Sequence record: OR992645.1
Reading direction: 5' to 3' (one strand)
Length of the DNA: 64,000 nt
DNA from: Escherichia phage EI-SP-GF
Position numbers and translations under genes: made by a program. This document shows positions 5,509 to 30,257 of this stretch, piece after piece. Positions within the stretch are counted from its first letter, which is position 1, and the number at the start of each line of letters is the position of its first letter. Under the pieces are notes generated by a model. It searched no databases. It was given only the letters and a program-made list of their open reading frames with translations, and had not been told where the DNA came from.

Positions 5509-6369
5509 ACCGTTGACAGAAGTTAACGTATTGATTTGGTATAGCAAAGTTTGCATACTATCAAACACGTCTTTATCCGTCATTTGCATTGCAACAGTCT
5601 CAGCATCCGGCAACCAATGTTCCTGACAAAATTTAAGATTCTTCTCATAGGTTGCTTCAGCATACTGCGCCAGATAATGATCAATATGGCTCATGGTCTG
5701 ACCACCATACTGAGCACTAGCTACTGCACTAGAGATTTGGCTGAGGATTGTTGTTGCAACCCCTATTGACTTCGGCTTACTGACATGGGCGTTGCCAATG
5801 TTGAATCCGTTTTCCAGCATATCCGGATAATTCACCAAACAGCAGTTTGTTAACGGACTGATCAGATAGTCAAGATCATGCACATGGATGAATCCCTTGT
5901 TGTGCTCTTCGGAGACACGATCTGGCAGTATCTGTGTTGATGCAAGGTGTTTGCTAAGGATACCTGCAAGCAGGTCACGATGAGTATGTACATGATTAGT
6001 GGGCTTATTTGCGTTTTCTTTTGTAAATTCATCACAAGTTCGATCCAAGAAGCCACTAATATCTGCAAGCAGTTTTCCACCTGCCTCTCTGTTATTATCT
6101 CTTGTCTGTCTATACTGGATATATTCTCTGGCTGCACATTTTAAACCCATATCCATAAGAGCATCTTCAACAAGGATATGGATATTTTTTACAGAGATCG
6201 TGCACTGGTCGGTTGGTAGATTGTTGGCAACAACTTCATTAACCGCACAAGCGATCCGGTAAGCTTCTTCTTCAGTATGCCCAGACTCAAGTAAGGCGGA
6301 CTCTGCCGCCTTGATTACCTTAACTCCGTTATAGACCTCTTCTCTACCGTCCCGTTTTACAACTTTCAC
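5506..6369 (-). CDS. nrdD: anaerobic ribonucleoside-triphosphate reductase, exon 1 (N-terminal ATP-cone part)
   Basis: Starts MKVVKRDGREEVY (ATP-cone-like); ORF ends at a stop that lies at the 5' edge of the intron, exon probably ends near 5509. Confidence 0.85.
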   Translation of the reverse strand: MKVVKRDGREEVYNGVKVIKAAESALLESGHTEEEAYRIACAVNEVVANNLPTDQCTISVKNIHILVEDALMDMGLKCAAREYIQYRQTRDNNREAGGKLLADISGFLDRTCDEFTKENANKPTNHVHTHRDLLAGILSKHLASTQILPDRVSEEHNKGFIHVHDLDYLISPLTNCCLVNYPDMLENGFNIGNAHVSKPKSIGVATTILSQISSAVASAQYGGQTMSHIDHYLAQYAEATYEKNLKFCQEHWLPDAETVAMQMTDKDVFDSMQTLLYQINTLTSVNG

Positions 6370-6644
6370 TTTTTCTCTCCAAAACCATTCTTAACAAAAG
6401 AGATGAAATCGTCAGCACCACCTATGTGGACACTATCAAGGTTGCTTTCCAAGAAGATCTGAGGCAACGTTCTGGGAACAAATGGACTACACTTCTCAAT
6501 AAGCTCTTCTTTTGTGTATCCTTCACCGAGCGTCTTGTATACGAAAGGTATACCTTTGCTTGCTGCAAATTCTTTTGCTCTTACACAATGTGGGCAGTTA
6601 TCCTTACCGTAGATGATAATGAAAAAAGATTTTTCACAGCTCAT
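6366..6644 (-). CDS. glutaredoxin/thioredoxin-like redoxin
   Basis: 92 aa with CPHC active-site motif near N-terminus, between nrdB and nrdD. Confidence 0.7.
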   Translation of the reverse strand: MSCEKSFFIIIYGKDNCPHCVRAKEFAASKGIPFVYKTLGEGYTKEELIEKCSPFVPRTLPQIFLESNLDSVHIGGADDFISFVKNGFGEKK

Positions 6645-6647
6645 ATA

Positions 6648-7736
6648 TTAAAACTCCCAAATTTCTTCTTCAGCGTCATTAACAGTTGTGTTGACGCGAT
6701 AGTCGGTGTTAGACATTTCCTGGTTAGCCGTCTGTTGCAGTGAAGGTTTCATCCACACCTGCATAAACGGTAACGGGTCTTTTGTTGGCGGCACAAAGTC
6801 TTTGTCGATGTTATAGTAATCATAAATCGGTGAACAGTTATAGTCAACCCATTCTTTAAGTAATGGTGAGTTAAGCCCTATAATCGCCCTTCCTTCGCTG
6901 AAAATATAGTCACTCCAACCGTACTCCTTGATCCGTACTTCGTCAAGAATCTCTTTTAACTCTCCCTTAATCTCAAGAAAGCTTTGCTCCCATGTAGGAT
7001 CATCAAGCAGGATATCGATGATAGCAAAATCACCTTTCGAATGCAGCATCTCATCAAGCATAATTTTTTGAACGAGTTGTGCAACTTGAACAAAAATACC
7101 TTGCTCAGCTACTGCGAACGTACATGCAAAACTTGCAATAAACTCAATACTCTCTAGAGCTAAAAGTGCAAAAAGTGCTCTAAGGATACATTTCCGTACA
7201 ACATCTTCTTCAACACTGGAAGGATCCAGTCGGTATTTTGCACCAATAACCTCAAGCTCTTGCATATATTTGACAATAACTCCAGACCTGCTTAGCACGT
7301 TCTGGTTTTCCTGAATCTCTTCTATAATCTCACGAGCATTAGGAAGGCATTGTCTAACAATCTCTGAGTAAGTTAGTGCATGAAGAACCTCGATCTCAGA
7401 CTGCTTCATCAACAAGGTGAAAAGTTCACTATTAGTGATAAATGGTGAAAACAGACAAATGATAGATCTTGCTGCAACACTGTCTGCCTCCCATTGCCAC
7501 ATCAGTGTCTGCACCATTACATCGTAAGTTGACTTTGAGCATGTTACGAAATCCGAAATAGACTGTGACAAATCTACTTCGTCCTCTGCCCAATCTTGTT
7601 CTTTTTGTTTTTTGTATAGTTCAAACAGCTGTGGGTACTTTTTGTTAATAGAGTCGTACATCCCCATCTGCTGTCCTAAAAACAGCGGATAATCACCAGT
7701 TTTATGAGCAGTGTTCTCAGTATTAAATACAGCCAT
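6648..7736 (-). CDS. nrdB: ribonucleotide reductase class Ia small subunit
   Basis: Position next to nrdA and size (362 aa from MAVFNTEN) fit the class Ia small subunit; no signature motif was checked. Start moved from ORF-track 7826 to ATG at 7736 (GAGG RBS 8 nt upstream), since 7826 would overlap nrdA. Confidence 0.85.
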   Translation of the reverse strand: MAVFNTENTAHKTGDYPLFLGQQMGMYDSINKKYPQLFELYKKQKEQDWAEDEVDLSQSISDFVTCSKSTYDVMVQTLMWQWEADSVAARSIICLFSPFITNSELFTLLMKQSEIEVLHALTYSEIVRQCLPNAREIIEEIQENQNVLSRSGVIVKYMQELEVIGAKYRLDPSSVEEDVVRKCILRALFALLALESIEFIASFACTFAVAEQGIFVQVAQLVQKIMLDEMLHSKGDFAIIDILLDDPTWEQSFLEIKGELKEILDEVRIKEYGWSDYIFSEGRAIIGLNSPLLKEWVDYNCSPIYDYYNIDKDFVPPTKDPLPFMQVWMKPSLQQTANQEMSNTDYRVNTTVNDAEEEIWEF

Positions 7737-20573: not shown

Positions 20574-21857
20574 TCATTCCAGAACCTCCCAAGTGTCTGG
20601 GTCAACATTTCGGACGCAGATACCGACAGGGAATTGGTAGTTGTTGTCTTCTGTCCTTGATTGATATTTGAAGGTGACAAACTTGCCGATCATTTCCTGC
20701 ATCCTGTCATAGCTACGCTCCTCGTGCGTGCCTTTCATCTTCATTTTAACAATAACACCTTCCTTGTCAACACAGATAAGAACACCTTCATCATTCTTAT
20801 CTTTCTCAACGTCAATAACTTTCACCTCTGCGTCGTTGAACTTTTTCCATTTCAATGCTTCAGATGTTCGCTGACCGTACTCGTATTTACCGCAGAAATT
20901 ACGCATGATAGTACCTTCATATCCTTCGGACATGAATATACCAACAGATTCTTCGCAATGATCAACTGTGTACGCAAGCTCTGCGTCAACAACCTTGATA
21001 TGGTCAAGCATCAGAGTGGTAACAGTATCCTCTGCATCCATAAGATCCTTGCAGCGTCCAGACTCTGTTTCTGGATCCCACCACACCTTGTCGCTAGGAA
21101 TATCAAAAATGTGATACTCCAGATCGTAGCTACAGTACCCACCGTAACGCAAATCATCACGAACAGGCTCAACATCGACAGGAATATCTACCTTGTTGAA
21201 GTTTTTGTATGTTGATAAGCCTGCCTTAATTGCTGCATGACGGCGTTTTTTATCTGCCTCATAGTCTTTATCGATCTCGGCCTGAATCTCTTCCTGTGTG
21301 CGCCACCGTTTAGCAAGAGACACTATTTTCTGCAAAGGAAGACCATGAATGTATAGTTCCCCATCAAGTTGTTTAATCCCAGTGGTAGAATGGAAAGAAC
21401 GAAGTTGCTCTAAAAGCTTTCCTTGAATAGGGTAGGACTTATTACCACGGGAAATAAATTTAGGCTCACCATTTTGGAAAACAACAAGCAGACGAAGGCC
21501 ATCTAACTTACGCAAGATCCAGCAAGGTAATTTAAGTGCCTTGCCACGCTTCAGGTAGTCATGCACCAGCATGGGTAAAAGATCAACACCCTGCTCGCAA
21601 TCTTCCATGTTTTCAACATACCCCAGACGGACTTGTTTTTCCCACTTGCTGATAGCCTCAAGCTCGGCCTGTTGCTCAGCTGTAGTCTCGTTGGCACGAC
21701 CTACGTTCTTAGGTGTGCATACCGTCTCTTTGTACTGCAGTTTACCATCAAGCTTGCCAAACTCTACGATAACCTTATCACCATCCGTGAATACTTTCCA
21801 CTGTTGGTAGCTGCCATCTTTATTCAGTGCGTACAGTGTTGTTTTGATCTGATGCAT
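20574..21857 (-). CDS. ATP-dependent DNA ligase
   Basis: Nucleotidyltransferase motif I KLDGLR and motif IV EGYEGTIMR. Confidence 0.6.
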   Translation of the reverse strand: MHQIKTTLYALNKDGSYQQWKVFTDGDKVIVEFGKLDGKLQYKETVCTPKNVGRANETTAEQQAELEAISKWEKQVRLGYVENMEDCEQGVDLLPMLVHDYLKRGKALKLPCWILRKLDGLRLLVVFQNGEPKFISRGNKSYPIQGKLLEQLRSFHSTTGIKQLDGELYIHGLPLQKIVSLAKRWRTQEEIQAEIDKDYEADKKRRHAAIKAGLSTYKNFNKVDIPVDVEPVRDDLRYGGYCSYDLEYHIFDIPSDKVWWDPETESGRCKDLMDAEDTVTTLMLDHIKVVDAELAYTVDHCEESVGIFMSEGYEGTIMRNFCGKYEYGQRTSEALKWKKFNDAEVKVIDVEKDKNDEGVLICVDKEGVIVKMKMKGTHEERSYDRMQEMIGKFVTFKYQSRTEDNNYQFPVGICVRNVDPDTWEVLE

Positions 21858-22126
21858 TACTCGGCCTCTTCCTTAAAAATTTTAAACATCTCTTCTTTAC
21901 TCATTACCAACCAGTCTCCCATAAAGTCAACTAGCCAATCTCCCTGGTACAAGACAAGGTTACCAAAAGGCTCGACAAGCTCACACATGCGACGAAGATC
22001 TCTGGTCCGAACAGGTGACGATGTAAACACACCTGTATCAATCCACCGTTGCAGATCAGATACTGATGAAGAGCTTCCGTCAAACTGATGTGCTTCTACA
22101 GGTTTAGCAAGATTAAATAACGGCAT
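21857..22126 (-). CDS. hypothetical protein (89 aa)
   Basis: ORF track. Confidence 0.3.
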   Translation of the reverse strand: MPLFNLAKPVEAHQFDGSSSSVSDLQRWIDTGVFTSSPVRTRDLRRMCELVEPFGNLVLYQGDWLVDFMGDWLVMSKEEMFKIFKEEAE

Positions 22127-22421
22127 TGCAGTCCTCCTTCTGTAGTAGGTCTTTTATAGGATAAACAAGTAAGTGTGGGTCGTAATAACGTATAGTCCTA
22201 TTCTGCCACACTATGAACTTTATTACAACCAAATTTACAATATCTTTATCACCATGTAGCCCAACACACACATTTGTCCATATTTTGTGGTTGAAGACCT
22301 TGCTATCGATGTAGATTTTAGTGTCAAACTTATCTTCCATTCTACCAATAAGTTTGATCAGCTCCTTCATCTGGTCGCCAAACACAGCATCTTTTTCAAG
22401 ATCTCTGGAATGCTTGTACAT
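22113..22421 (-). CDS. hypothetical protein (102 aa)
   Basis: ORF track. Confidence 0.3.
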   Translation of the reverse strand: MYKHSRDLEKDAVFGDQMKELIKLIGRMEDKFDTKIYIDSKVFNHKIWTNVCVGLHGDKDIVNLVVIKFIVWQNRTIRYYDPHLLVYPIKDLLQKEDCNAVI

Positions 22422-22449: not shown

Positions 22450-22477
22450 TAATAAGTAAAGCCGGGTAATCCCGGCT
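22450..22477 (-). terminator. hairpin terminator-like element downstream of 22484-23197 gene
   Basis: Perfect 7-bp stem AGCCGGG/CCCGGCT with TAAT loop, followed on minus strand by T-rich tract. Confidence 0.4.
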
Positions 22478-22483
22478 ATGTTG

Positions 22484-23197
22484 TTAAATATACTCTGTTA
22501 CATCCTTGAAGCTCGAAGGCTTCATAATCTTACCTTTACTGTCAAGGAATATAATAACTTTATTGCCGTTGTAGAACTCCTCTTTAGCAACGAAACCTTC
22601 GTAGCGACCACCAAAACGACGCTCAAGATCTTTAATCTCCAACTCGATGAGTTGTTCAGCAGGCATATCTGCACTGGCACCGTGTGAATGCCGTAGATGG
22701 TTGATCCGTGCAAACTTACTGTCATTAGATTTTAGAACCTTCCGCATCATCCCACACACATCCCCGCTAAGCTGGAACAGCAAAGCTGTTGATAACTCCG
22801 CTAGTCGGTAAGCTGACGCTCTTTGCTTGGATGTGTTTTTCGCAGCGATCAGTGTATCATAGAACTCACCGATCTTGAACTTAAGACCTCGCGGATTATC
22901 AAACAGGTTTGACCACTTTTCGTGGTTATCATTAACAAGATAAGCTGCATAACTTGTGACAACGTGAAGATCGCAGGCCTCTTTTAGCAGGTGATCTCCA
23001 CCAGCACCTTTCTCCAGCTCTTCCAAAACCTCATTGAACTCTTCCTCAATGAAGCTAAGCTGTAATTCGAATGGTGTGTATGATTTTTTCACTTTAGCTG
23101 CCACACGGTTCCAGTTTTCCACCCAGTTAGCAGACCAAAGGTAGTTTTCAGGCTGGGACAGTTTTTCCAGGTTGTCGATCAGTTTAGTATTCAGCAT
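22484..23197 (-). CDS. putative MazG-like nucleotide pyrophosphohydrolase
   Basis: EEEFNEVLEELEKG...DHLLKEACDLHVV resembles MazG EExxE/ExxD helices. Confidence 0.35.
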   Translation of the reverse strand: MLNTKLIDNLEKLSQPENYLWSANWVENWNRVAAKVKKSYTPFELQLSFIEEEFNEVLEELEKGAGGDHLLKEACDLHVVTSYAAYLVNDNHEKWSNLFDNPRGLKFKIGEFYDTLIAAKNTSKQRASAYRLAELSTALLFQLSGDVCGMMRKVLKSNDSKFARINHLRHSHGASADMPAEQLIELEIKDLERRFGGRYEGFVAKEEFYNGNKVIIFLDSKGKIMKPSSFKDVTEYI

Positions 23198-23210: not shown

Positions 23211-23972
23211 TTAAAGTTCCATAAAGTTTTCTACAGTTTCAATAAATGCTTTATCAGAGAAAGCGTCAACAGCACCGTTAAACCATACAGGGATCCCGCG
23301 ATCCTCATATTGATAAAGGTCGCTACGTGAAATGCCACTTCCATCTGCACTCTGCGAATCATACTTGTTTACAATCAGCAGTTTTGTGCCTTTACAAGTA
23401 GCAGGAAACAATTCCCAGTTAAAATTAATAACTGTGTTAGAACAACCTACCAGGATCACCATATCATTGCTTGTGAGAGATGTCAACAGGTCATACATGT
23501 CTGTATACTTAGGAGCAACCTCACCGAAGAACACTACATTGGGCTTAACCCAGGTATACTTGCCTGTATCTACCTCCGTGTATCCGATATTTTTAATTAC
23601 ATCATTACCTTCAGCATCTTCGTAGGTGATTTCAGGCAAATACCCGTGGACATGTAAAATATCTTCATGTTTTACACCAGCACGCTCCAGCAAATCATCT
23701 ACATTGGTAGTAAGGTTGATCACACGACCAGACCAGCGGGAATACCACTCAGCGATCCGAAGATGTGCAAGGTTAGGATCAACACTGCCCAGAGCTACAC
23801 GACGTGCATTGTAAAAGTCATGCACCTTATAGTAGTTCTTGGCAAAGGTGTGGATGTTGCACACCTCATCGATGCTGAAATTCTCCCACATTGCAGTGCT
23901 ACCAGATCGGAAAGTGGGAATACCAGATTCAGCGCTCAAACCAGCACCGGAGATAATAATCAGTCGTCGCAT
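23211..23972 (-). CDS. Sir2-family (sirtuin-like) NAD-dependent protein
   Basis: GAGLSAESGIPTFR, TTNVDDL, HVHG, KPNVVFFGE and LVGCS sirtuin motifs; no CxxC zinc ribbon. Confidence 0.75.
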   Translation of the reverse strand: MRRLIIISGAGLSAESGIPTFRSGSTAMWENFSIDEVCNIHTFAKNYYKVHDFYNARRVALGSVDPNLAHLRIAEWYSRWSGRVINLTTNVDDLLERAGVKHEDILHVHGYLPEITYEDAEGNDVIKNIGYTEVDTGKYTWVKPNVVFFGEVAPKYTDMYDLLTSLTSNDMVILVGCSNTVINFNWELFPATCKGTKLLIVNKYDSQSADGSGISRSDLYQYEDRGIPVWFNGAVDAFSDKAFIETVENFMEL

Positions 23973-23980
23973 AAGTGTCC

Positions 23981-24361
23981 TCAGTAGATGTTTTGTTTAA
24001 TCTCTATTCCAAACTTCTTGAATGAGTCAGCAGCAAGCATAAATTTACGAGCTGCCGATGGATTAGAAGTATGCACGAAAATAATCACGTTGTCAATAAG
24101 TGGTGGCTTTCCGAATACAAGTTTCTCCTCTAGCGCAGAGAAGCAGTCGTACCCTTCAAGCACTTCACCTAGATCATTGTCAAAATGCCACTCAGAAACG
24201 CGCCTGTAGAGCTTTCTATTATCGTTAATAAAATCCATGAACTCAGAAGAGTTCTTCAGCCAAAGAGCATCTTGGATTCCGTAATTTGACGGATCTCTCA
24301 AGTCATCTAGCCACACAATCAACTTCTTCATTGCATATAGTCCTCGTTGTGAAAATAGCAA
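23981..24361 (-). CDS. hypothetical protein with receiver-like motif pattern (126 aa)
   Basis: KLIVWLDD...HFDNDLG...VHTSNP pattern reminiscent of a REC-like fold; inference only. Confidence 0.3.
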   Translation of the reverse strand: MLFSQRGLYAMKKLIVWLDDLRDPSNYGIQDALWLKNSSEFMDFINDNRKLYRRVSEWHFDNDLGEVLEGYDCFSALEEKLVFGKPPLIDNVIIFVHTSNPSAARKFMLAADSFKKFGIEIKQNIY

Positions 24362-25263
24362 TCAAGTATCTCACGGCGTTCCTGCTCCAGGAGGCAGTTC
24401 CACACATCTTCTGTGTAATTGCTACGAATGAAGTTTACCATGCCATAAAACTCTTCGTCAATACGTTTAAAGATATCATCATCCCAAATCTTCCAAGCTT
24501 TACCCCTCATTACGGCCTTCCGTGCCAAATAGTATGGAGACTTGATCTTCAGCTGCAGGTCATAAGGGTAGTAAGGCTTACGGATCATATACCCTTCGCC
24601 CCTTGTTTCTGCAGCCAATTCTTTTGCATAGCTGAACGGGATTTCACGCACAGTGTGAGGACGTTTTGCACCAAGGTATTTGGCAATCCCATCTAAAGCT
24701 GCTTCTGGTAGCATTATTCCAGAATCATTATATCTGCAACCTATCAAATATGCGCCATGGTCTTCTTGAACAATATGCGGATCTGAAGGGTGACAAATTT
24801 CAAACATGAATGTCATGTTTTCATTGCCCATAACCTTCTTGATAAGATCTAAATTACCACATTGCTCTTGGATGGTTTCCTTTGCAAGGTTACAATATGG
24901 AGAATCAAGAGACCCGGTTGTTGAGAACAATAGGTCACCTTTATGAGATGATACCACACCAAGGAATCCGTTCTTTTTCTCTACCGCAGTCACAAGCTTA
25001 TTGTCAGGCAGGTTGGTGGAGTTTTCTCCCAAGTTAAACACTTTTGTGAAGGGCCATGCCACAACATTTCCTTCATTACCTACAACAATGCCTCGGCACT
25101 CCAGTAAACGAGGGGACAAATGCCATAAATTGTTGTAAAATACTTTTCTAGCATATTTATAGATCTTTAACCCGAGATCTGGGTAATACCTACTGGTTAC
25201 AAGACCTTTGTCAACTAGGTCGTCTGCATTAAAATACTTCATCATACGTTCCTCATTTGTCAT
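24328..25263 (-). CDS. putative RNA ligase (nucleotidyltransferase)
   Basis: Motif I VEKKNGF (KxNG as in Rnl1/Trl1-type ligases) and motif IV GEGYMIRKP; true start probably ATG at 25242 (GAGGAA RBS). Confidence 0.45.
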   Translation of the reverse strand: MTNEERMMKYFNADDLVDKGLVTSRYYPDLGLKIYKYARKVFYNNLWHLSPRLLECRGIVVGNEGNVVAWPFTKVFNLGENSTNLPDNKLVTAVEKKNGFLGVVSSHKGDLLFSTTGSLDSPYCNLAKETIQEQCGNLDLIKKVMGNENMTFMFEICHPSDPHIVQEDHGAYLIGCRYNDSGIMLPEAALDGIAKYLGAKRPHTVREIPFSYAKELAAETRGEGYMIRKPYYPYDLQLKIKSPYYLARKAVMRGKAWKIWDDDIFKRIDEEFYGMVNFIRSNYTEDVWNCLLEQERREILDCYFHNEDYMQ

Positions 25264-25363: not shown

Positions 25364-25774
25364 ATGTCTAAAATGCTATATATCGTGCGTGGTCTACCAG
25401 GGTCTGGCAAATCAACACTGGCAAATGCGCTATCTTTAGAGGGTCTGTATCCACATTTTGAGAACGACATGTTCTGGTATGACGATGACGGCAATTACAA
25501 CTGGGATGCAAGTAAAGTAACACTCGCAGCGAAATGGTGCAAAGATAACGTAGAAGATATGATGCGTATGGGATACGACCGTATCGTGGTAAGTAATACG
25601 TTTACAAAAGAAAAACATGTGCAGGAATATGTTGACATGGCAATCAGTCATGGGTATAGTTATACCGTGATCGTGGTTGAAAACCGCCACGGTAATAAAA
25701 GCATTCATGATGTTCCAGACAAGGTTGTGGATCGTATGGAACGCCAGCTTAAAAACTGCATTAAACTTAAATGA
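25364..25774 (+). CDS. P-loop polynucleotide-kinase-like protein
   Basis: Walker A VRGLPGSGKSTLA at N-terminus; start moved to ATG 25364 (GGGGGG RBS). Confidence 0.6.
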   Translation: MSKMLYIVRGLPGSGKSTLANALSLEGLYPHFENDMFWYDDDGNYNWDASKVTLAAKWCKDNVEDMMRMGYDRIVVSNTFTKEKHVQEYVDMAISHGYSYTVIVVENRHGNKSIHDVPDKVVDRMERQLKNCIKLK

Positions 25775-25781
25775 GGAATGT

Positions 25782-26336
25782 ATGAAATACTTTGTAACAA
25801 GCGACACACACTTTCTCCACCAGCGGGTCATGGAGTTTGATTCATGTCAAAAACACAGATCTCAGTATGATCACAATCTTGACAGTATGAATGCGGGAAT
25901 CATCGCCGAATGGAACTCTGTTGTGTCACCTGCAGACACTGTGTTCCACTTGGGAGATATTGCGTGCACTAATGATAAGAATATCAACAACTTACTTCCA
26001 GATATTCTAAATATGTTGAACGGACATATTATTCTTGTTCGTGGCAACCATGACACAAGGACGACTGTCAGAATTATGAAAGAGTTCGGTCATGAGGTTG
26101 TAGATTATTACGAGCTTCGCCACAACAAGAATTTGATCTGTATGAGCCATTACCAATTTGCAAAGTGGAACAGAAATCCTCACGGATCAGTCCAACTGTT
26201 CGGTCATGCTCACGGAACCACACAACAGTTGTTTGGCAGGCAGCTTGATGTCGGTTGGGATGTGTGGGGGAGACTCTTACCATTAGAAGAGGCATACCGT
26301 ATTGCAATGAGTTTTGCTATTGACAGCGGGGAGTAA
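25782..26336 (+). CDS. calcineurin-like metallophosphoesterase
   Basis: Motifs SDTHF, LGDIA, VRGNHD; start moved to ATG 25782 (GAGGAA RBS) directly after kinase stop. Confidence 0.65.
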   Translation: MKYFVTSDTHFLHQRVMEFDSCQKHRSQYDHNLDSMNAGIIAEWNSVVSPADTVFHLGDIACTNDKNINNLLPDILNMLNGHIILVRGNHDTRTTVRIMKEFGHEVVDYYELRHNKNLICMSHYQFAKWNRNPHGSVQLFGHAHGTTQQLFGRQLDVGWDVWGRLLPLEEAYRIAMSFAIDSGE

Positions 26337-29272: not shown

Positions 29273-29344
29273 GCCCTGTTAGCTTAGTGGATAAAGCAGC
29301 GGCCTTCTAAGCCGTTGACACTGGTTCGAGTCCAGTACGGGGTG
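29273..29344 (+). tRNA. tRNA-Arg(TCT)
   Basis: Hand-folded cloverleaf: acceptor GCCCTGT/ACGGGGT, D-stem GCTT/AAGC, anticodon loop CTTCTAA, T-loop TTCGAGT, encoded CCA. Confidence 0.8.
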
Positions 29345-29477
29345 CCAAGTTCTTTTTAATGTAGCTTACTTTAGCAGAGTAAATCTTCGGCAAGTGGCGG
29401 TAACCACTTTACCGATACCTCATAGTTAGTGGTTAGAACACTAGCTATTTTAAAAAGAATTTAAATATTAGTATTTA

Positions 29478-29562
29478 GGTGAGTTAATTCCGTAGGGGTA
29501 GCGGGGCAGACTGTAAATCTGTTATCATTGCGATTCGGGTGGTTCGACTCCATCACTCACCA
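29478..29562 (+). tRNA. tRNA-Tyr(GTA), type II with long variable arm
   Basis: Acceptor GGTGAGT/ACTCACC, anticodon loop CTGTAAA, T-loop TTCGACT, CCA encoded. Confidence 0.75.
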
Positions 29563-29680
29563 CCAAATTTATATTTTTAAATGCATAAATCATACAGATA
29601 ATGGCATTGATATTTATCGTCGTTTATACTAGTCACTAACTGCTCGAAAATCAGTGTCATTATCAGTATTGTTTATAAAA

Positions 29681-29768
29681 GAGGGTAGGGAGCAATGGTG
29701 CTCAAGCGGTCTTGAAAACCGTCCCGTTGAGGATGACTCGATGATGGTTCGATTCCATTATCCTCTGC
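29681..29768 (+). tRNA. tRNA-Ser(TGA), type II
   Basis: Acceptor AGAGGGT/ATCCTCT, anticodon loop CTTGAAA, long variable arm, T-loop TTCGATT, CCA encoded. Confidence 0.7.
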
Positions 29769-29868
29769 CATATTGTTGACCTTGTAATTAAGCGAAAGCC
29801 GGAAGCAGAACCGGATTATCAAATGTTACAGTCGTCATCGCCGACTAGCAACATGGTCAACATACTGA

Positions 29869-29965
29869 GCTAGGTAAGCCCTTTGGCAAGGGCGAGGATT
29901 TTTAATCCTGAAAATAGACGAGGTAGTCGTTGAATACATAGATGGTTCGATTCCATCACCTAGCA
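29869..29965 (+). pseudogene. aberrant tRNA-like element (possible degenerate tRNA-Lys(TTT)-like)
   Basis: Canonical acceptor GCTAGGT/ACCTAGC, D-arm GCCC/GGGC and T-arm GATGG-TTCGATT-CCATC, but 97 nt long with about 30 nt between anticodon-like hairpin and T-arm. Confidence 0.35.
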
Positions 29966-29971
29966 CCTTTT

Positions 29972-30044
29972 GCTGATGTAGCACAATTGGCAGTGCAATT
30001 GATTTGTAATCAATAGGTTGCAGGTTCAAGTCCTGCCATCAGCA
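29972..30044 (+). tRNA. tRNA-Thr(TGT)
   Basis: Complete 73-nt cloverleaf: acceptor GCTGATG/CATCAGC, anticodon stem ATTGA/TCAAT with loop TTTGTAA, T-loop TTCAAGT, CCA encoded. Confidence 0.85.
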
Positions 30045-30048
30045 CCAT

Positions 30049-30120
30049 GGCCCTGTAGCTGGAAGGTTCAAGCAAGCGACTCATAATCGCCAGACGGTGG
30101 TTCAATTCCACCCAGGGCCA
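30049..30120 (+). tRNA. tRNA-Met(CAT) (elongator or Ile2-type)
   Basis: Acceptor GGCCCTG/CAGGGCC, anticodon loop CTCATAA, T-arm GGTGG-TTCAATT-CCACC; starts 1 nt after tRNA-Thr CCA. Confidence 0.8.
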
Positions 30121-30134
30121 CCAAATAATAAATA

Positions 30135-30208
30135 CTCCGCGTAGCTCAGCTTGGTAGAGCGCCTGATTTGGGATCAGGAGGTCGAGTGTTCGAATCACTC
30201 CGTGGAGA
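30135..30208 (+). tRNA. tRNA-Pro(TGG)
   Basis: Acceptor CTCCGCG/CGTGGAG (C1-G72 as in bacterial tRNA-Pro), D-arm AGCTCAGCTTGGTAGAGC, anticodon loop TTTGGGA, T-loop TTCGAAT. Confidence 0.85.
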
Positions 30209-30257
30209 CCACCTTTAGTTATACTTTAAATATATACACACAAAAGGAACCTTTAAA

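Follow-up and report, generated by a model that had tools for sequence, protein, structure and literature searches.

The window analysed here, 64,000 nucleotides of Escherichia phage EI-SP-GF (sequence record OR992645.1), carries on its minus strand (23211-23972) a gene for a 253-residue sirtuin of class III (CobB/SIRT5-like) in which the zinc ligands have been lost. Judging from its sequence and from those of its relatives, we read the product as an active class III-type NAD+-dependent deacylase that would act on protein acyl-lysines, possibly including acidic acyls bound via Tyr54 and Arg57, and we put the probability of this reading at roughly 0.4. More than 1,000 sequenced lytic phages, including T5 and the Vequintaviruses of the BASEL collection, carry this predicted NAD-consuming enzyme, and two published in-silico proposals compete to explain it: deacetylation of host proteins and Tpt1-like RNA repair. 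A deacylase would show how phages rewrite the host acylome; an RNA-repair enzyme would mean that, in the conflict between phage and host over tRNAs, sirtuin chemistry has come to serve the repair of nucleic acids.

The sirtuin gene and its product

The open reading frame is real, and its match to sirtuins lies far beyond chance. It starts with ATG, has a ribosome-binding site (GAGGA) 7 nt upstream, and encodes an acidic (pI 4.9), single-domain protein. Residues 9-181 match the Pfam SIR2 profile (PF02146) over positions 1-178 of 180 with E=6.9e-28 and 98.2 bits (cutoff 24), and the match to PHROG 2162, 'Sir2 (NAD-dependent deacetylase)', runs end to end (E=1.5e-108). Over the surrounding 4 kb, the window shares 99.8% identity with Escherichia phage MaxTheCat (Bas57) and further Vequintavirus (rV5-like) phages, in whose records the gene is annotated as 'sirtuin domain NAD-dependent deacetylase' or 'Sir2-like'.

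Homologs were detected by tblastn in 1,011 phage records. Identity to the window sirtuin was 92-100% in rV5-like phages, about 55-56% in PVP-SE1-like phages, about 46-57% in T5 and T5-like phages (57% for T5.102), 46-50% in phi92-like phages and likewise in KVP40/nt-1-like Vibrio phages, and 38-43% in jumbo phages. Some labels in public records need correction. In the T5 RefSeq record NC_005859.1, T5.105 (6142-6648) is named 'Sir2 (NAD-dependent deacetylase)' although its product, by Pfam, is a phosphatase of the HAD_SAK_2 type (PF18143, E=4e-20). The true T5 sirtuin is T5.102, and the T5.105 label seems to be a mis-annotation passed on between records. Some 18-25 records in GenBank that bear the name 'Campylobacter phage' (e.g., MG065653.1 and MG065635.1) are rV5-like or phi92-like coliphage genomes whose sirtuins are 99-100% identical to that of the window, and these host labels look doubtful.

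For the alignment, the CobB sequence was taken from the E. coli genome, SIRT5 and Sir2Tm were entered as what we take to be their sequences (residues 51-160 of SIRT5 agree with the PDB alignment), and zinc-bearing close relatives were included. The motifs GAGLS (9-13), SGIPTFR (16-22), N90, D92, H109-G110, VVFFGE (146-151), G176-x-S178 and N202 were located. An earlier note on this DNA had claimed that all core sirtuin motifs are present; the alignment bears this out apart from two departures from the canonical consensus, TQNID to TTNVD (23697-23711, minus strand), in which Gln is replaced by Thr89, and GTS to GCS. His109 (codon 23646-23648, minus strand) aligns with the catalytic histidine of CobB, SIRT5 and Sir2Tm and is invariant in the family, as are N90, D92, G9-A10-G11-x-S13 and F21-R22. 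The stretch Tyr54-Asn-Ala-Arg57 (23802-23813, minus strand) corresponds to Tyr102/Arg105 of the anionic-acyl pocket of SIRT5, and this class III Tyr-x-x-Arg pair is invariant in all 120 of the 120 closest homolog clusters. Cys38, which is invariant and aligns with Ala86 of SIRT5, was considered as a phage-specific pocket residue and rejected, as it is common to cellular zinc-bearing relatives.

The AlphaFold2 model of the protein has a mean pLDDT of 90.4 and a pTM of 0.89. A C-terminal extension (residues 205-253; 23214-23360, minus strand), predicted to form helices at 216-224 and 234-252, is present in the aligned proteins of rV5, T5 and phi92 type and absent from CobB, SIRT5 and the protein of Vibrio phage nt-1.

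Loss of the zinc ligands

The sirtuin has three cysteines (38, 177 and 193), and residues 110-143, which follow H109 and precede P144, contain neither Cys nor His. This segment (GYLPEITYEDAEGNDVIKNIGYTEVDTGKYTWVK; 23544-23645, minus strand) is a degenerate zinc-ribbon module. When it is aligned with CobB, SIRT5, Sir2Tm and the zinc-bearing close relatives, T116 and D119 stand where these have the first CxxC, and a gap takes the place of the second. The segment has 34 aa (CobB, 37; zinc-bearing relatives, mostly 36-39) and retains the central IGY motif. Three strands are predicted in it, at 110-118, 124-128 and 142-146, with pLDDT values of about 94-97. The earlier claim that the zinc module is absent is thus right for the ligands but not for the module: the ligands are gone, and according to the model the ribbon itself is kept as an ordered three-stranded sheet.

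To place the zinc-less state among its relatives, we used an exhaustive HMMER search of 1.84 billion representatives, which returned 5,496 relatives, 73 of them at E<1e-30. The ligands are missing in 120 of the 120 closest homolog clusters (at least 46% identity). Among the best 150 of the 5,496 relatives, the nearest mostly lack the ligands, and slightly more distant ones combine an equally long segment with the complete CxxC...CxxC. A neighbour-joining tree built without the zinc segment, which is crude and indicative only, puts the window sirtuin in a clade of about 45 representatives, of which 42 lack the zinc ligands. The clade lies inside an assemblage that is largely zinc-bearing, and CobB, SIRT5 and Sir2Tm fall outside. 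The zinc-bearing relatives are mostly cellular and CobB-like. They include P0135, P0142 and P0145, all on cellular contigs (next to lipoate-protein ligase, amid purine-synthesis genes, and next to ankyrin and DAGK genes, respectively), and P0154, on a contig with myovirus-like baseplate genes. Translating the P0135 locus beside the lipoate-protein ligase gene (L068 4714-5427) with table 11 does not yield the query sequence; its source organism may therefore use an alternative genetic code.

Outside the zinc segment, one core position splits the two groups: it is Thr89 in 83% of the zinc-less sequences and Gln in 86% of the zinc-bearing ones. Since the zinc-less clade is nested and its pocket is near-identical to that of the zinc-bearing relatives, these sequences are indicative of a late degeneration of the zinc site within a deacylase-type lineage. 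The zinc of sirtuins is structural, not catalytic (PMC8556138), and a sirtuin cannot be taken for a defence-type NADase from its loss of zinc alone.

Similarity to deacylase and defence sirtuins

The best PDB matches of the sequence were E. coli CobB, SIRT5 and Sir2-Af1 (E about 1e-21). When the model was searched with Foldseek, CobB, Sir2-Af1 and SIRT5 took the top ranks (E=4e-18 for CobB; TM 0.74-0.84), and the top 50 consisted of deacylase sirtuins only, with no defence Sir2 among them. By three methods, the top PDB matches were class III sirtuins. The Tyr-x-x-Arg pair together with closest similarity to CobB, SIRT5 and Sir2-Af1 assigns the protein to class III (CobB/SIRT5 type) by sequence. 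Its scores against the CobB equivalog models NCBIfam NF040867 (104 bits, cutoff 320) and PRK00481 (122.6, cutoff 243) are far below the cutoffs, indicating a relative of CobB rather than an ortholog.

The earlier note had taken the zinc-less state as a sign of a defence-type NADase. This does not agree with the absence of a defence-Sir2 HMM match, the invariant Tyr-x-x-Arg pair and the nesting among CobB-like relatives. With the PADLOC models for defence Sir2 (ThsA, DSR, SIR2-HerA, SPARSA), only a 33-residue match to PDC-S65 was obtained (E=0.011), and SIR2_2 (PF13289) gave E=0.097, below its cutoff. At the sirtuin locus, no defence-type sensor or partner (SLOG, HerA, pAgo/APAZ, STAND, TPR) was found, either fused or adjacent. 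The structural comparison with defence Sir2 and CobB, which the earlier note had proposed, also places the model nearer to the deacylases. Similarity values were 22.3 for Sir2-Af1, 19.0 for PfSir2A, 17.8 for SIRT4, 17.7 for SIRT2 and 17.4 for SIRT1, compared to 15.0 for the ADP-ribosylating SirTM and 9.5-13.0 for defence Sir2 (PsSIR2 13.0, HerA-Sir2 12.0, KomC 11.9, ThsA 11.4, Avs5 9.5).

Gene neighbourhood in the window and in other phages

The minus-strand order around the sirtuin is Rnl1, cREC, sirtuin, MazG-like gene, hairpin, two small ORFs and DNA ligase. The gene for the T4 Rnl1-type RNA ligase (24328-25245; Pfam PF09511, E=1.1e-14; annotated in MaxTheCat) overlaps the start of the gene for the cyclic-phosphate processing receiver cREC (23981-24331; PF20274, E=5.7e-14; PHROG 1479), which lies 8 nt upstream of the sirtuin gene. 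The gene for the MazG-like nucleotide pyrophosphohydrolase (22484-23197; PHROG 671, E=1.3e-20; no Pfam match) follows 13 nt downstream of the sirtuin gene. Directly after it come a perfect, GC-rich 7-bp hairpin (AGCCGGGTAATCCCGGCT; 22460-22477, either strand), two small ORFs (21857-22421; 102 aa, PHROG 7684, and 89 aa, PHROG 14585) and, at the end of the same-strand run, the gene for an ATP-dependent DNA ligase (20574-21857; PF01068 and PF14743). Divergently, on the plus strand, lie a P-loop polynucleotide-kinase-like gene (25364-25774; AAA_33, E=1.7e-10; PHROG 505/2071; start as in MaxTheCat) and a gene for a calcineurin-like metallophosphoesterase (25782-26336; PF12850 and PF00149; PHROG 547). 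RNA ligase, cREC, kinase, MazG-like gene and phosphoesterase, all five partners, are located no more than 2.5 kb from the sirtuin gene. A scan of the region for terminators and promoters gave counts not above shuffled expectation, so operon boundaries are suggestive only, and the hairpin at 22460-22477 faintly hints at the end of a four-gene unit of Rnl1, cREC, sirtuin and MazG-like gene.

The two small ORFs are kept alongside repair genes in Vequintavirinae-type loci (L002, L005, L026-L029). In phage records, the cREC gene is often labelled 'RNA ligase and tail attachment protein', a mislabel that is likely due to its overlapping or abutting the Rnl1 gene. A cluster of tRNA genes lies 3.5 kb away (29273-30211, plus strand), and the callers disagree on its content. 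At 29869-29967, ARAGORN calls a 99-nt 'tRNA-???' whose anticodon has four bases; the Rfam tRNA score of this element is weak (37.5 bits), and MaxTheCat has a 97-nt tRNA-Lys at the equivalent place. An 85-nt tRNA at 29478-29562 was called by Rfam only, and a 91-nt tRNA-Ser at 29680-29770 by ARAGORN only.

In PVP-SE1-type phages, Rnl1, cREC, kinase, sirtuin and DNA ligase are consecutive. Among the 63 loci sampled, about 14 of Vequintavirinae type have most or all of the full repair set, and T5-like loci pair the sirtuin with a HAD_SAK_2 'RNA repair Swiss-army-knife' phosphatase (29 of 63). In jumbo phages, the sirtuin occurs with a Nudt16-like Nudix protein and cREC, and an Acb1-like 2H enzyme and NAD-salvage genes are close by. 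On the other side, for about 18 of the 63 loci, neither tblastn nor Pfam revealed any partner up to roughly 3.5 kb from the sirtuin. Phage ukendt, which is phi92-like, has the whole repair block (Rnl1 47%, cREC 53%, kinase 43%, phosphoesterase 36%, MazG-like 31% and DNA ligase 28% identity) at 84-90 kb and the sirtuin at 57 kb, 27 kb apart. By tblastn, cREC was detectable in 357 phage records, compared to 1,011 for the sirtuin, with no T5-like phage among the matches listed. As the partners recur across lineages yet are missing or distant elsewhere, the link of the sirtuin to RNA-end and ADP-ribose-processing genes is recurrent, not obligatory.

Two stricter rules were rejected: that a cREC gene invariably precedes the sirtuin gene directly (in T5, ukendt and nt-1, the ORFs upstream do not match cREC), and that adjacency to RNA-repair genes is universal (the partnerless loci and the distant block of ukendt). 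In T5-like phages, the sirtuin or HAD_SAK gene is closely followed by a tandem pair of DUF7415 genes (L001 6651-7481; L031 8969-9762), and these are kept even where HAD_SAK was not detected. In Yersinia phage fHe-Yen9-03 (L065 1-6668), NadM/Nudix, Nampt, an Acb1-like 2H enzyme (Pfam Acb1, E=2.6e-17), the sirtuin and a Nudt16-like Nudix-cREC fusion lie together, an NAD/ADP-ribose island in which enzymes for salvage and for RNA ends occur beside anti-CBASS-like ones.

Proposed activity and alternative explanations

We favour a deacylase because the pocket is unchanged relative to the cellular relatives, all three similarity rankings point to deacylases, the protein is acidic, and adjacency to repair genes is dispensable. 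In the proposed mechanism, NAD+ would bind to the Rossmann domain, and the acyl oxygen of the substrate would attack C1' of the nicotinamide ribose, releasing nicotinamide. His109 would then activate a ribose hydroxyl to resolve the intermediate, giving the deacylated substrate and O-acyl-ADP-ribose. The likeliest substrates would be acyl-lysines of host or phage proteins, among them those with acidic acyls recognised by Tyr54/Arg57. The sirtuin would be made together with RNA ligase 1, cREC and the MazG-like pyrophosphohydrolase, and removal of the ADP-ribose by-product could fall to the pyrophosphohydrolase (Nudix in jumbo phages) and cREC. However, a general protein deacylase leaves unexplained the recurrent link to RNA-end and ADP-ribose genes in Vequintavirinae, T5-like and jumbo phages. 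Moreover, canonical sirtuins contact the NAD ribose through a Gln, and the Thr found here in its place could change the outcome of the reaction; nor can a target protein be named.

The main alternative is a sirtuin for RNA repair that would be a non-homologous analogue of Tpt1/KptA, a prediction published with phage V5 named (Iyer, Burroughs, Anantharaman, Aravind 2022; PMC9503650). Here, ADP-ribose would be moved from NAD+ to the RNA 2'-phosphate that is left after cyclic-phosphate opening and ligation, and the 2'-phosphate would leave as ADP-ribose 1'',2''-cyclic phosphate. The by-product would be processed by cREC/2H and Nudix/MazG proteins, and Rnl1, kinase and phosphoesterase would heal and seal the ends. 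We regard this as possible but rather unlikely. It explains the recurrent gene context best: the tight Rnl1/cREC/sirtuin/MazG-like run with its overlaps or gaps of 8-13 nt and the divergent kinase and phosphoesterase, the same gene set in PVP-SE1-type phages, the pairing with HAD_SAK_2 in T5-like loci, the Nudix, cREC and Acb1-like 2H enzymes of jumbo phages, and the nearby tRNA genes. The anion site at Tyr54/Arg57 could also bind a phosphate. However, pocket and catalytic residues are essentially those of cellular CobB-like relatives, so the substrate would have been switched with almost no sequence adaptation, and the protein is acidic. The set of healing and sealing enzymes lacks nothing when the sirtuin is left aside, and in phi92-like phages it lies far from the sirtuin; T5-like phages are missing from the cREC matches listed. 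We know of no sirtuin that acts on an RNA phosphate.

A broader form of the same idea, likewise put forward in silico by Iyer et al. 2022, is that the sirtuin acts on RNA rather than on protein, by NAD+-dependent removal of a 2'-phosphate or by another ADP-ribosyl transfer to RNA ends, as part of a phage tRNA-repair pathway directed against host anticodon nucleases; we consider this doubtful as well. If it holds, the phage protein would be a non-homologous replacement of Tpt1/KptA and the first nucleic-acid-directed sirtuin in RNA repair. The anti-defence role suggested in the earlier note survives only via this RNA-repair context.

Alternatively, as part of a tRNA-restoration kit, the enzyme might deacylate a non-protein amide of the translation apparatus, such as the N-acetyl-aminoacyl-tRNA that GNAT toxins produce or an acetylated nucleoside. 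An unchanged deacylase-type active site would then be reconciled with the RNA/tRNA gene context, but the protein is acidic, and peptidyl-tRNA hydrolase already handles adducts of the N-acetyl-aminoacyl-tRNA type in cells; we consider it improbable. About as improbable is an NAD+ glycohydrolase or NAD-modulating factor that, like zinc-less defence Sir2, would drain or alter the NAD pool of the host or disturb immunity based on NAD: the missing zinc ligands, the position 2-4 kb from the NAD-salvage genes Nampt and NadM in some jumbo phages and the consumption of NAD+ by any sirtuin would fit it, but not the comparison with defence Sir2 given above.

Comparison with known systems

The absence of the zinc ligand was described by Skliros et al. 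2016 (PMC5107563) for the Sir2/CobB proteins of Vibrio phages phiSt2, phiGrn1 and KVP40. These authors proposed stabilisation by salt bridges, reported that the His and the acetyl-lysine tunnel are conserved, gave T5 as a homolog, and suggested deacetylation and activation of host Acs as the role. The Vibrio proteins belong to the same phage clade as the window sirtuin (the nt-1 homolog is 40% identical in the alignment) but have no C-terminal extension and are not beside an RNA ligase or cREC gene. In a full-text literature search, no experiments on the sirtuins of T5, rV5 or other phages came up. The zinc loss of the clade and the RNA-repair neighbourhood of the rV5 phage type are thus already published, and the gene is annotated in about 1,000 genomes; added here are the nesting of the clade in cellular CobB-like sirtuins and the loss of adjacency in phi92-like phages.

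CobB and SIRT5 are only 29-30% identical to the window sirtuin. In comparison with both, it has no zinc ligands, has Thr for the Gln of TQNID, GCS for GTS and 'VINF' for 'VYP', and adds a C-terminal extension of about 50 residues; Ala86 of SIRT5 is Cys38. The defence Sir2 NADases (ThsA, DSR1/2, SIR2-HerA, SPARSA, KomC, Avs5) have the sirtuin Rossmann core in common with it and also lack the Zn(Cys)4 site. SirTM shares the sirtuin fold but transfers ADP-ribose rather than deacylating, and no operon or fusion with a macrodomain of the SirTM type was found for the window sirtuin. Tpt1/KptA is a proposed functional analogue with an unrelated fold and active site and no homology. Its use of NAD+, via a substrate oxygen on C1'' and subsequent attack by the ribose 2''-OH, resembles the role proposed for the sirtuin, and both occur in an RNA-ligase context. 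The closest counterpart is the gene set for which Iyer et al. 2022 (PMC9503650), from the group that also defined the cREC domain (PMC7824862), gave Escherichia phage V5 as the prototype, predicting in silico that the phage sirtuin removes RNA 2'-phosphates in the manner of KptA/Tpt1. The neighbourhood of that clade, with T4-like RNA ligase, cREC, kinase, MazG and calcineurin-like phosphoesterase, is exactly that of the window.
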